10,033 nucleotides of DNA, from the IMG/VR virus record IMGVR_UViG_2660238061_000002, one strand, 5' to 3'. How positions within the stretch are numbered: position 1 is the first letter of the stretch; each line of letters starts with the position of its first letter. This DNA is from a virus. Its lineage: Duplodnaviria > Heunggongvirae > Uroviricota > Caudoviricetes. Of the stretch, positions 1 to 10,033 are shown piece by piece. Under the pieces are notes generated by a model. It did not search any database, was not told the origin of the DNA, and saw nothing but the letters and a program-made list of their open reading frames with translations. Both the position numbers and the translations under genes were made by a program.

Positions 1-310
1 AGTTGACTTAATATTACATAAACATATTACTGTTTATTAATGTAGCACGCCGCCCTCTTAAGTCAAATTGATTGATAAATAAATTTAAACGAAGCGGGAG
101 AACAGGATGATAATGTGTGATGTTCTACGGGCAGGATGACTGGATTTATAATACAAAAACGTGTTTAAGAACGCAGGGAAATTAATAGTAAGCAAATAAT
201 CCCTTTTCGTGACATTAAAGGTAATCGCTACATTTAATAAACATTCATATAACATATATCTTATCAACACGATGAATAGACGGCCAATATATTATTGCGA
301 TTAATAAGCA

Positions 311-355
311 ACCGAATGCCCAGCTGTTTTTTTAAAGGCTGGGCATTCGGTTTTT
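311..355. terminator. Rho-independent-type hairpin: perfect 14-bp stem (311-324 accgaatgcccagc / 338-351 gctgggcattcggt), 13-nt A/T loop, T-run 352-355; could act in both directions
   Basis: Inverted repeat read directly from the sequence; lies just past the stop (370-372 on the minus strand) of the partial minus-strand ORF. Confidence 0.6.
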
Positions 356-369
356 ACAACGTTATGTTA

Positions 370-504
370 TCAGGTGTGTTTAAAGCTGTTCTGCTGGGCA
401 ATACCCTGCAGTTTCGGGTGATCGCTGAGATATTTCAGGGAGGCTTTGTAGTCTTCCAGCAACAGTTCAGCAAAGTCCATTTCGAAGCCGCGACGACACA
501 TAAT
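370..504 (-). CDS. C-terminal 44 codons plus stop of an unidentified protein (…[40 protein letters not shown]), cut off by the N run at 505
   Basis: Open frame ending at TGA (370-372, minus) followed by the strong terminator; I do not recognise the family. Confidence 0.35.
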
Positions 505-515
505 NNNNNNNNNNA

Positions 516-923
516 TCAGGCGGTACAGCCATTCAGGCCGCTGCGGCGAAATTCCATTTTGCAACCGGAGGATTTACGGGAACCGGCGGCAAATATGAGC
601 CAGCGGGGATTGTTCACCGTGGTGAATTTGTCTTCACGAAGGAGGCAACCAGCCGGATTGGCGTGGGGAATCTCTACCGGCTGATGCGCGGCTATGCCAC
701 CGGTGGTTATGTCGGTACACCGGGCAGTCTGGCTGACAGCCGGTCGCAGGTGTCCGGGACGTTTGAGCAGAATAACCATGTGGTGATTAACAACGACGGC
801 ACGAACGGGCAGATAGGTCCGGCTGCTCTGAAGGCGGTGTATGACATGGCCCGCAAGGGTGCCCGTGATGAAATTCAGACACAGATGCGTGATGGTGGCC
901 TGTTCTCCGGAGGTGGACGATGA
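516..923 (+). CDS. H: Lambda-like tail tape measure protein H, C-terminal fragment (…GVGNLYRLMRGYATGGYVGTPGSLADSRSQVSGTFEQNNHVVINNDGTNGQIGPAALKAVYDMARKGARDEIQTQMRDGGLFSGGGR*)
   Basis: Translation matches my recollection of the lambda gpH C-terminus; stop at 921-923 overlaps the next start in an ATGA arrangement, as in lambda. Confidence 0.88.
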   Translation, partial: SGGTAIQAAAAKFHFATGGFTGTGGKYEPAGIVHRGEFVFTKEATSRIGVGNLYRLMRGYATGGYVGTPGSLADSRSQVSGTFEQNNHVVINNDGTNGQIGPAALKAVYDMARKGARDEIQTQMRDGGLFSGGGR

Positions 924-961
924 AAACCTTCCGCTGGAAAGTGAAACCCGGTATGGATGTG
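920..961 (+). CDS. M: Lambda-like minor tail protein M, first 14 codons (MKTFRWKVKPGMDV), cut off by N run
   Basis: ATG at 920 overlapping the H stop; peptide matches recalled lambda gpM N-terminus. Confidence 0.8.
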
Positions 962-972
962 NNNNNNNNNNT

Positions 973-1296
973 ACGGTGAAGGTCACCAATGTGGGCCGTC
1001 CGTCAATGGCAGAAGATCGCAGTACGGTGACGGCGGCAACCGGTATGACCGTGACGCCTGCCAGCTCCTCGGTGGTGAAAGGGCAGAGCACCACGCTGAC
1101 CGTGGCATTCCAGCCGGAGGGCGCAACTGACAAGAGCTTCCGTGCGGTGTCAGCGGATAAAACAAAAGCCACCGTGTCGGTCAGTGGTATAACCATCACC
1201 GTGAAAGGCGTTGCTGCAGGTAAGGTCAACATTCCGGTTGTATCCGGTAATGGTGAACTTGCTGCGGTTGCAGAAATCACTGTCACCGACAGTTAA
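973..1296 (+). CDS. V: Lambda-like major tail protein V, C-terminal fragment (Ig-like domain; …[14 protein letters not shown])
   Basis: Translation resembles recalled lambda gpV C-terminal region; stop TAA 1294-1296; the next gene follows after 15 nt with a GGAGAG ribosome-binding site. Confidence 0.85.
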
Positions 1297-1311
1297 TCCG
1301 GAGAGTCAGCG

Positions 1312-6876: not shown

Positions 6877-8265
6877 GCGGATATCCAGATTCGCTGCGGT
6901 GGTGTGAACGCCGGTCAGCCTGCCGGTGGTGCTGTAGCTGTAACTCCGGGTCTGGCGCGGGCTGCTGATGCGGATGAGTTCGCCGTTGTCGTTCCAGGTG
7001 TAATCGCGGTCATACTGCAGGCTGTTCAGGTGCTGACGCTGTAACTGCCCGGCAGGGGTGTAAGCGGTGGTGAGTTCATAACGACCGAAGCTGCGCAGCG
7101 TTTCCCGGTGCAGGCGGTCGCGGGTGAAATCCACCAGCGGTGTGTCGCCGAGCTTCATGCCTGCCAGCCAGCCGCTGCCGTAGGTCAGCCATTCCACGGC
7201 GGGCAGGCTGTCCGGTATACAGCGGTTCGCCAGTCCCTGTGCGTTGTACGCATGTCTGGTCTCATGCTGCCAGAGCAGTTCATTCGTCTGCGGATGATGC
7301 ACCGTCAGGTGTTCACTGGCGAGGCGGCCTTTACTGTCATAACCATAGTGCACCGCCACCCGGTGCCCTTCGCTGATATGGCTGATGTCTGTCAGCCAGC
7401 CGCGTTCGTCATACTGCCACTGCTCTGCGGTTTCACCCTTCACGGTGCGGTGAGTGAGGCGGTCTGCTTCGTCATAGTACCAGTGGGTGACCAGCCCCTC
7501 ATCCTCGCTGCGGATAAGTTTGCCGGTCAGGTCGTGGTGATAACGCTGTGTGCGGCCGTCAAAGCCGGTTTCCTGTATCAGCCGGTCGAGTACATCGTAA
7601 CGGAAGGTGGTGTGGCTGCCGTTTTCACTGGTCAGGCGGATGACCCGTCCGGCAGCATCGTATTCCATACTGCGCGTCAGCCCGCCCTGCGTGGTACAGA
7701 TGGCCTTTCCCCACGCATCGTACTGTGTCCCGTTTCTGCTGCCGTCCGGGGCAATGACGGTGGTCAGGTCACCGGCGGCGTTGTATTCATACCGCGTTTC
7801 ATGGCCCTGCGTGTCTTTCACGGCAATTAACTGTCCACGGCTGTCGTATGCGCGGTACTGGCTCAGCCCTTCCTCGCGGTGCACCGCCGTCACCTGACCA
7901 AAACGGTCATGGTCATAACGGGTTACATAACCGGAACAGTCGGTGAAGCTCAGCAACTGGCCGTAACGGCTCCACGTCATGGTTTTCCGGCTGCCGGTGG
8001 CATCGTCCGTTGCGCAGGGGAGGTCACTGTGTGGATTATCATAACGGTAGCGGGTGATATCGCCGTCAGGGGCGGTTTCCTGAATCAGACGGCCGGATTC
8101 ATCATATTCCCGGCGCAATTCCAGCCCGTCAGGCCCGGTGGCTGACGTTAACTGGTTGTGGTGGTTATAGTAAAACGCCGATGCCCTGCCATCCGGCGTG
8201 GTTATGCGCGTGATGAGGCCCGTCACCACATCCGGGCTGTACTCTGTTGTCCTGCCTGCGGCATC
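6877..8265 (-). CDS. Rhs-family protein, internal YD-repeat region (463 codons, no stops), open at both ends
   Basis: Repeated xxGxxxRYxYDxxGRL-type units (e.g. DAAGRTTEYSPD, RYDHDRFGQVTAV, RYEYNAAGDLTTV, TFRYDVLDRLIQETGFDGR); neither the N-terminal domain nor the C-terminal toxin tip is present. Confidence 0.85.
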
Positions 8266-8276
8266 NNNNNNNNNNG

Positions 8277-8872
8277 CACTGTAAAGAGAAGTGGCTGCGT
8301 ACCCTGTGTGAAGTTGATTTCACGCCACCGGTAAATGGGGAAACGCTTGAAACTCATGCCCCGGCATTCTGGCGCTGGCTGGACAGGGCAGCCGGGCGCA
8401 AGCCAGCAAAACGCGACATTATTCTCGCAGCGCTGTTTATGGTGCTGGCGAACCGCTATGACTGGCAGCTCTTTCTGGAAGTGACTGGCCCTGGCGGAAG
8501 TGGCAAAAGTATCCTTGCTGAAATTGCAACGATGCTTGCAGGAGAGGATAACGCCACCTCAGCGACAATTGAAACTCTGGAGTCCCCGCGAGAACGTGCG
8601 GCTCTGATCGGTTTTTCTCTTATTCGCCTGCCTGATCAGGAGAAATGGAGCGGCGATGGCGCCGGGCTTAAGGCTATAACCGGTGGCGATGCAGTATCTG
8701 TGGACCCCAAATATCAGAATGCTTATTCAACACATATTCCGGCGGTTATCCTGGCCGTAAATAATAATCCTATGCGCTTCACTGATCGCAGTGGTGGTGT
8801 GTCTCGCCGGAGAGTTATTCTGCATTTTCCTGAGCAGATAGCACCGGAAGAACGCGATCCGCAGCTAAAAGA
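8277..8872 (+). CDS. Phage/plasmid primase-helicase fragment, P4-alpha-like C-terminal (SF3 helicase-type) domain with Walker A GPGGSGKS at about 8487-8510
   Basis: Open frame across the block; P-loop motif plus sequence context recalled from P4-family primase C-terminal domains; open at both ends. Confidence 0.55.
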
Positions 8873-8882
8873 NNNNNNNNNN

Positions 8883-9395
8883 CGATTCGGTCGGGTTAAA
8901 CTGCACGCCAGCTCCCCACGCCAGAGACGTGTTGCTGTGGCGACCGTCATCACTTCCGGTCAGCACATCGTGCGTTTTCCCCTTGTTGTCAGTTACGCGG
9001 AGATAATCCCCGGAGAAAGTCGACACACGGCTGTAAGCCACACCCGCCATCGCATACGCGCTGAACCATTCATTCACGCGTACAGACGGCCCCGCCATCA
9101 CGCTGAACCAGCGGTTACGTAAGGAATCTTCATGCCAGCGGGTATCGCTGTAACGGGTCAGCTGGCGATTCTTGTCTCCTGCATAGCTGAATGACGTCAC
9201 CAGCCCTAGTGTGTCCGTAAACTCATAACGGTATTTCACGTTAATCCCGTTCAGATCATCGCTGCCGGGAACGTTCGTCGAGGCATGAAGATAGCCCGCG
9301 CTCAGCGTGGACTGATGTTCAGACGCCCATGCAGGCGCACCGGATACGGCCAGACAGATGGCTGCGGACAAAATGGCGGCATAAAGTTTACGCAT
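8883..9395 (-). CDS. lom: Second Lom-family outer membrane protein (paralog of 6051-6625), 3' end cut off by N run
   Basis: ATG at 9393-9395 (minus); MRKLYAAILSAAICLAVSGAPAWASEHQS…; about 95 percent identical to the first lom copy. Confidence 0.85.
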
Positions 9396-9418
9396 AATTA
9401 CCTCTCGCTTTTCTGCAA

Positions 9419-9444
9419 TAAAAAAGGCGCCAGAAATGGCGCCC
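9419..9444 (-). terminator. Rho-independent terminator between the second J C-terminus and second lom (minus strand: ggcgcca-tttc-tggcgcc then tttttt)
   Basis: Hairpin plus T-run read from the sequence; paralogous to the terminator at 6003-6027. Confidence 0.55.
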
Positions 9445-9463
9445 GCATATGGGTTATGAAAAT

Positions 9464-10014
9464 TCAGCTAATCGTGATACCTGCTGTGGATTTCTTCATC
9501 ACCACAACCAGCAAATCGCTGATACTGGCTGTGGGATACCAGTCATTTACCAGCCACGCTGATACCGAAAACTCCAGCGTCATGTGACCGCGACCAGCAG
9601 GCATATCAATAACACCTGTATAAACCAGCGTATTATCCAGCGCGGTACGGTTATAAATTTCAGCACCGTTTTTCTTCACTATCAGGCGGCATGACGAATA
9701 AATATCGTTATTCTCCCGCTCATGTTTAGCGCCACGAAACGCCACCGCGGGAATAACAATCTGCCGGTCAAACGGCTGATCGTCATAAACCCTGACGGTA
9801 ATGGTCCCTGATGGCCACCGCTCCGGTGCACGGGAGTCCCGGGGGAAAGCTTTGCCCACTGTTTTAACGAGATCGCCTTCAATCTGGTTCGCGGACAGTT
9901 TTCCCAGAACCCGACAGTTCTCGTTAATCGTGACATTGTTGAGCGTCCCGGCGTTCGCATTCACACTGCCACTGATATCCGCATTTTTAGCGGTCAGCTT
10001 TCCGTCCGGTGTCA
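9464..10014 (-). CDS. J: Lambda-like protein J, C-terminal receptor-binding region, variant 2 (…[69 protein letters not shown]…[22 protein letters not shown])
   Basis: Stop at 9464-9466 (minus); conserved flanks with a divergent central segment compared with variant 1. Confidence 0.85.
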
Positions 10015-10033
10015 NNNNNNNNNNCTGACACAT

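Follow-up and report, generated by a model that had tools for sequence, protein, structure and literature searches.

Fixed 10-N spacers and copy-specific blocks mark a lambda-like stretch of Escherichia coli RU1 MA5 as an assembly patchwork

The IMG/VR virus record IMGVR_UViG_2660238061_000002, classified in the Caudoviricetes, contains a stretch of 10,033 nucleotides (nt), here called the window, in which fragments of lambda-type tail genes and other sequences are separated by short runs of N. The locus raises the question of whether these fragments are neighbours in a real prophage or chromosome, or were brought together when the sequence was assembled. A preliminary description, made from the letters alone, had seen sixteen runs of exactly 10 N and blocks that follow neither the order nor the orientation of the lambda tail genes, and had likened them to repeat-collapsed or scaffolded contig ends. 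We find that the patchwork arose in the assembly of a public record and is no biological feature. With a probability of about 0.95, the window was cut from the pseudo-scaffold of a draft assembly, the blocks of which are nodes of a de Bruijn graph built with a word length (k) of 63, and is not a stretch of chromosome.

The window holds 160 N in 16 runs, and all 16 were counted at exactly 10 N. They lie at positions 505-514, 962-971, 1653-1662, 1858-1867, 2150-2159, 2463-2472, 2667-2676, 2899-2908, 3220-3229, 5055-5064, 5365-5374, 6626-6635, 6867-6876, 8266-8275, 8873-8882 and 10015-10024, and delimit 17 blocks of 9 to 1825 nt, numbered B1 to B17 from left to right. The whole window is an exact substring, positions 784,673-794,705, of the GenBank whole-genome shotgun record JRRN01000033.1 (4,666,050 bp; assembly GCA_001413425.1) from E. 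coli RU1 MA5, a strain name given for this assembly in PMC9638481. RU1 MA5 is a mutation-accumulation line with 100-bp paired Illumina reads (PMC4263409); that paper gives the read type and leaves the method of the deposited assembly unstated. Across 29 kb of the source record around the window, 23 of 23 N runs are again 10 N long whatever their context, and a spacer length so uniform in the window and beyond it is therefore not due to chance. The blocks elsewhere in these 29 kb measure 97 to 8611 nt and are equally unrelated in content, including flagellin, IS1, Tn3, toxin-antitoxin genes and BenE.

Sequences facing each other across a spacer do not belong together. All 16 junctions join sequences that are no neighbours in real genomes, the combinations being chromosome with prophage, prophage with a plasmid-type IS1 segment, two alleles of one locus in tandem, and misordered parts of a primase gene. 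In 5,426 complete E. coli genomes, no single place accounts for 80% or more of the window (the best reaches 37%), and its arrangement, which should recur elsewhere if it were a real mosaic or rearranged locus, was not recovered in complete genomes or in other assemblies. A search of IMG/VR with a junction-spanning pattern that included the 10 Ns gave no matches, so that either the window is no IMG/VR contig or Ns are not matched there; the same search without Ns in the pattern led to an uninterrupted prophage contig (IMGVR_UViG_2700989272_000002, hereafter L008). This contig contains B2 and B16 at 100% identity, each in an uninterrupted context unlike its arrangement in the window. The earlier warning that synteny across the Ns should not be interpreted is borne out by the junctions, the complete genomes and this contig alike.

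Gene calls suffer in the same way. In the window, 28 of 50 mechanically called open reading frames (ORFs) of at least 60 amino acids cross a spacer; among the record's own 19 gene calls, 11 cross a spacer and the other 8 abut one. The preliminary description had regarded ORFs over N runs as artefacts, and we agree: the spacer-crossing gene calls are chimeras. An ORF that runs from the lom gene in B12 over the spacer into B13 can exist only in the source record, and an exact look-up returned one record only, JRRN01000033.1. Two further spacer-crossing chimeric ORFs led to the same single record. Such "proteins" (e.g., those of 6051-6743, 868-1296 and 9464-10033) are indexed in a large public protein and contig collection, where an exact sequence query retrieves them and three were looked up. 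Among assembled genomes, JRRN01000033.1 alone yielded the junction-dependent products; the single further match is an unrelated 635-bp metagenome contig that carries the same C-terminal fragment of J.

These observations bear directly on two literal readings of the record. According to the first, the blocks follow one another in this order in RU1 MA5, each N run taking the place of a short gap of unknown sequence. Only the form of the record speaks for it, together with the placement of B4 directly after B3, which is the style in which a pair-based scaffolder lays out the branches of a bubble. We nevertheless consider it highly improbable, since the junctions with identified flanks all lie between interrupted parts of different genes, two loci are represented by both of their alleles, and plasmid, chromosomal and prophage DNA are interleaved, with the primase pieces misordered; no complete genome has this arrangement, and L008 gives other flanks for B2 and B16. 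The second reading, a real contiguous sequence in which short stretches of low quality or of vector were masked by N, can be practically dismissed. Masking would agree with N runs that are short and uniform, but it keeps the flanks collinear, whereas the flanks in the window map to different replicons, strands and overlapping coordinates, and B3 and B4 overlap on 195 nt of gene G.

The ends of the blocks indicate how the graph-node patchwork was made. As judged from the sequences compared, the first copy-distinguishing base opens a block, whose right end lies 62 nt beyond the last base of this kind. B3 and B4, the two blocks with gene G, were already noticed to end identically, and their common suffix proves to be exactly 62 nt, longer than the 17-mer originally quoted; the 63rd base differs. 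The last 62 nt of B16 equal positions 57-118 of B12, and B16 begins at a single-nucleotide polymorphism (SNP). In B10, the last 62 nt (3 flank bases and 59 nt of IS1) recur exactly at an IS1 junction in a 4.2-kb block farther along the record, and positions 133-194 of B7 are identical to the lysQ copy of E. coli K-12. There are thus three exact 62-nt terminal matches within the record (B3/B4, B16/B12 and B10) and one against K-12 (B7/lysQ), and no exact match longer than 62 nt exists between any two window blocks. Sister blocks share termini over exactly k-1 nt.

The lambda-type blocks were compared with two references, the complete lambda-type phage PhiR30_1 (47 kb) and L008. In nine ungapped blocks aligned with PhiR30_1, position 1 is mismatched in four and position L-62, where L is the length of the block, also in four, against a background mismatch of 3.0% (P ~9e-5 for each of the two positions). 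Both ends fit the rule in five blocks (B4, B6, B11, B13 and B16). B4 starts at a SNP relative to B3, with mismatches at 1 and from 22 to 133, the last of them at 133 (= 195-62). Compared with L008, the mismatches of B6 run from 1 to 241 (= 303-62) and those of B11 from 1 to 238 (= 300-62), in both cases without a mismatch-free gap of 63 nt or more, and B13 differs from PhiR30_1 at 1 and 169 (= 231-62). Relative to these references, B6, B11 and B13 are exact branches of a bubble. B3 is mismatched at L-62 (position 619) and ends 62 nt past its last difference from B4; B12 begins with a variant relative to L008 and ends 62 nt past its last difference from B16. B2, too, opens with a variant, in its case relative to PhiR30_1, and B9, at 99% identity to L008, is mismatched at position 1. 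The rule is stated in window orientation and holds for B13 and B16 as well, the content of which is reversed. A block that runs from its first copy-specific base to 62 nt past the last has the form of a node label.

The blocks also come from sequences present more than once. Per complete genome, Rhs has a median of 4 places, the autotransporter repeat 3, gadA/gadB 2 and IS1 20; tRNA-Lys has 5 copies in the array compared, and two prophage loci are present as two alleles. The original likening to repeat-collapsed or scaffolded contig ends was right in its general sense and needs correction in one respect: the blocks are not themselves the collapsed repeats but the copy-specific sequence lying between these, with shared sequence confined to the final 62 nt of each.

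We propose the following origin. The RU1 genome contains several similar copies of a number of sequences (at least two lambdoid prophages, IS1, Rhs, tRNA-Lys/Val arrays, gadA/gadB and autotransporter repeats, and probably two P4-like elements too). The graph collapses stretches identical over at least 63 nt, which were placed elsewhere, and the copy-specific stretches between them survive as short k = 63 nodes. Each node, if every k-mer in it is represented by its last nucleotide, would start at the first distinguishing base and end k-1 = 62 nt past the last. The leftover nodes would then have been chained by 10-N spacers of fixed length, which say nothing about distance or neighbourhood, either through spurious pair links at high coverage or by concatenation on the part of the submitter. 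Spurious pair links are plausible at very high coverage, and they fit a single 4.67-Mb record made from short-insert data. The comparisons above demonstrate the existence of the copies, the collapse of identity of at least 63 nt and the survival of copy-specific nodes, as they do the spacers, what the blocks are and where they truly lie, the 62-nt end rule and the source record.

From the form of the blocks, we infer that the assembler was Velvet or a program that writes its nodes alike. A Velvet node is labelled by the last nucleotide of each k-mer (PMC3488206). In Velvet scaffolds (Zerbino & Birney), runs of N bridge unresolved links between de Bruijn graph nodes. The blocks resemble such scaffolds in this node-label form and in the k-1 overlap logic, as 62 nt points to k = 63, which is odd as Velvet requires and suits 100-bp reads. 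They differ from them in that proper Velvet scaffolds link nodes within one insert length, whereas here unrelated loci stand side by side in one 4.67-Mb record; either the links are therefore spurious, or the pieces were joined at another step. We also considered, and rejected, real pair-based scaffolding across collapsed repeats, which predicts collinear phage blocks and gaps sized as the collapsed stretches; neither is seen.

As a variant of the artefact, the submitter or a pipeline may have joined contig FASTA records with a fixed 10-N linker and used no scaffolder at all. We regard this as possible but rather unlikely. The window has the fixed spacer, the arbitrary order and orientation, and the chimeric ORFs across linkers that are known from concatenated pseudo-chromosomes; all spacers are identical, neighbouring blocks are unrelated, and a single 4.67-Mb record amounts to nearly the whole genome. 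However, stand-alone contigs from the common graph assemblers keep the k-1 overlap at both ends, whereas the window blocks lack it on the left and start at a variant base. B13 and B16, although reversed, obey the same left and right rule as the others, which, like the missing left overlap of k-1, suggests that the nodes were added in succession within a scaffold. Such starts could also have come from a pipeline in which overlaps are trimmed. An ordering of the blocks along a reference chromosome was also tried and rejected: orientations are mixed (B1 plus and B7 minus relative to K-12), the phage blocks are unordered, and there are four points only, namely the four chromosomal blocks, which stand in what we take to be descending K-12 order by map position.

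Several observations weigh against an origin as k = 63 graph nodes written by Velvet or a similar program. The right ends of B2, B8 and B9 show no mismatch at L-62 relative to the proxy references. B1 ends 110 nt, not 62, past the last difference between gadA and gadB of K-12, the paralogue differences of which need not match those of RU1, and the left end of B7 is 5 nt off the prediction from valZ of K-12, a proxy genome. Unlike pure unitigs, B3, B12 and the larger blocks run through short shared stretches or whole IS1 copies; the assembler therefore did some repeat resolution. The chaining of unrelated loci is a further difficulty, because genuine read-pair scaffolding would not put them side by side. 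Velvet writes gaps shorter than 10 bp as 10 N; literature searches gave no documentation of this 10-N minimum and returned only generic "split at 10 Ns" usage.

For users of the record, the consequences are a matter of data hygiene only. The window gives no synteny, gene fusion, novel domain architecture or prophage rearrangement, and gene calls that cross or abut a spacer are to be discarded. The 62-nt end rule offers a quick, read-free way to spot graph-node patchworks in other records, and reveals the bases that set collapsed repeat copies apart. The chances seem about even that the whole 4.67-Mb record, and possibly several dozen same-day sibling RU1 assemblies, were built alike; if so, public protein collections would hold a sizeable set of spacer-crossing chimeric "proteins". 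The sibling RU1 assemblies were not among the places returned for the B10 proteins and for one edge-truncated product, so that reproducibility was tested only indirectly.

Ten of the 17 blocks are lambda-type and match parts of B, U, V, G, H, M, I, J and lom of PhiR30_1 at 84-99% identity. They cover only ~5.1 kb of the 47-kb phage, in fragments of 195-1251 nt on both strands and in scrambled order, with PhiR30_1 positions, in window order, of 32.1 (+), 28.8 (+), 29.3 (+), 37.3 (+), 23.2 (-), 35.0 (+), 34.3 (+), 37.7 (+), 28.2 (-) and 38.9 (-) kb. This mapping supports the initial impression that order and orientation are not those of lambda. An intact lambdoid tail region would lie on one strand, collinear and with complete genes; in the window, each phage gene is cut at a block edge. 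Compared with the lambda-type tail module (V-G-T-H-M-L-K-I-J-lom), the ten blocks are disordered, lie on both strands and include two alleles of two loci. Describing the window in terms of a lambda tail is apt for these ten blocks and fails for the other seven, which contain no lambda sequence.

The phage genes are represented as follows. B2 (515-961, plus strand, 447 nt) contains the 3' end of the tape-measure gene H and the first 14 codons of M (PhiR30_1 32108-32553), and lies uninterrupted within H/M in L008. B3 (972-1652, plus, 681 nt) comprises the 3' end of the major tail gene V and the 5' 341 nt of allele 1 of G (PhiR30_1 28783-29463), and B4 (1663-1857, plus, 195 nt) is a fragment of allele 2 of G (PhiR30_1 29269-29463), the sister of B3 positions 487-681. 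Internal pieces of genes make up B6 (2160-2462, plus, 303 nt; tail-tip gene J, PhiR30_1 37300-37601), B8 (2677-2898, minus, 222 nt; portal gene B, reversed, PhiR30_1 23240-23019 at 96.4%), B11 (5065-5364, plus, 300 nt; tail assembly gene I, PhiR30_1 34309-34607) and B13 (6636-6866, minus, 231 nt; tail gene U, reversed, PhiR30_1 28197-27968), while B9 (2909-3219, plus, 311 nt) holds the 5' part of J (PhiR30_1 35020-35330). B12 (5375-6625, plus, 1251 nt) carries the 3' end of J, with its stop at 5984, and most of allele 1 of lom (PhiR30_1 37707-38957). Allele 2 of lom and the 3' end of J form B16 (8883-10014, minus, 1132 nt; reversed, PhiR30_1 38894-37763 at 84%), which corresponds to L008 4263-5394 and is the sister of B12 positions 57-1189.

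B3 and B4 are 94.8% identical and end on the same reference base, and B12 and B16, at 83% identity, are copies of one locus. Both pairs are diverged copies of the same loci, and at least two prophages therefore contribute to the window. RU1 would accordingly harbour two or more lambdoid prophages that differ in their J C-terminus/lom alleles, with putatively different receptor-binding ends.

The remaining seven blocks are of chromosomal, plasmid and satellite type. B1 (1-504, minus, 504 nt in the window; the whole block measures 718 nt in the record) contains the region downstream of gadA and the last 44 gadA codons on the minus strand. It is 99.8% identical to gadA loci, with a median of 2 places per genome, and 99.6% identical to gadA of K-12 over 504 nt; positions 366-504 also match gadB of K-12 at 98.6%, and the right end falls inside the gadA/gadB two-copy repeat. 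Just 3' of the gadA stop, an imperfect inverted repeat of 43 nt (window 310-352) leads into a T run and looks like the gadA terminator. B5 (1868-2149, plus, 282 nt) is an internal piece of a chromosomal gene for a repeat-rich autotransporter or beta-strand-repeat adhesin (99.3% identity; median 3 and up to 14 places per genome). B14 (6877-8265, minus, 1389 nt) is an internal piece of an Rhs core gene, a multi-copy family, matched at 100% in NCTC9008 and with a median of 4 and up to 10 places per genome.

B7 (2473-2666, minus relative to K-12, 194 nt) is the spacer between the tRNA genes lysT and valT and is 99.5% identical to K-12. Its right end consists of 60 nt of tRNA-Lys and 2 flank bases common to lysT, lysZ and lysQ, together a 62-nt exact multi-copy repeat, and its left end is without tRNA-Val sequence. 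ARAGORN found no tRNA, which fits a block with truncated tRNA genes only and does not speak against its identity. The lysT-valT spacer further contains an 18-nt copy of the tRNA-Lys 3' end (GGTGGGTCGTGCAGGAT...; window 2507-2524 and 2607-2624), extra to the true truncated tRNA-Lys, and this remnant also occurs in the spacers of the K-12 lys/val tRNA array.

B10 (3230-5054, plus, 1825 nt) is a plasmid-type segment in which an IS1 end with the 5' part of insA (3230-3482, inverted), a gene for a CPBP/Rce1-like intramembrane protease (3538-4311), a GyrI-like gene (4341/4359-4796) and the first 59 nt of a second IS1 (4996-5054, inverted) follow one another. It is 99.5% identical over 97% of its length to the Salmonella plasmids CP048302/CP048300. 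Elsewhere, the CPBP and GyrI-like pair lies in a plasmid or integrative and conjugative element (ICE) backbone with the order RepA_C ... TetR - CPBP - GyrI-like ... HTH_17 - type I restriction-modification, and it is also flanked by IS1 in plasmids and chromosomes of Salmonella, Klebsiella and E. coli. In the natural contexts viewed, lambda genes never stand beside the B10 genes, the neighbours being plasmid or ICE backbone or IS1. The two IS1 of B10 are in inverted orientation with their insA-side ends inward, and their terminal repeats differ (GGTAATGGTGCC vs GGTGATGCTGCC).

The last two blocks are parts of one P4-type gene. B15 (8276-8872, plus, 597 nt) is an internal piece of the primase-helicase gene of a P4-like element (DUF5906; Pfam PF19263 on the record's gene call). 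B17 (10025-10033, plus) is the first 9 nt of a 479-nt block from the same primase gene. In real genomes, the B17 block sits 549 nt upstream of B15 (878092-878570 vs 879120-879716 in NZ_CM128581.1); the order in the window is reversed, with B17 after B15 and a lom fragment between them. Most E. coli genomes have one copy each of B15 and B17. RU1 probably carries two related P4-like satellite elements, because this usually single-copy primase-helicase gene is broken into short nodes here.

The surroundings of the window in JRRN01000033.1 are similarly varied. To its left (record positions 775,540-784,540) lies an 8.6-kb block with adenine deaminase and MFS transporter genes, two complete IS1 (a 675-nt exact repeat) around a GFA-family gene, and a flagellin-like gene fragment. 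Farther right in the record, a Tn3 transposase, BenE, a TnpB fragment, ParE/RelB and Hok are found.

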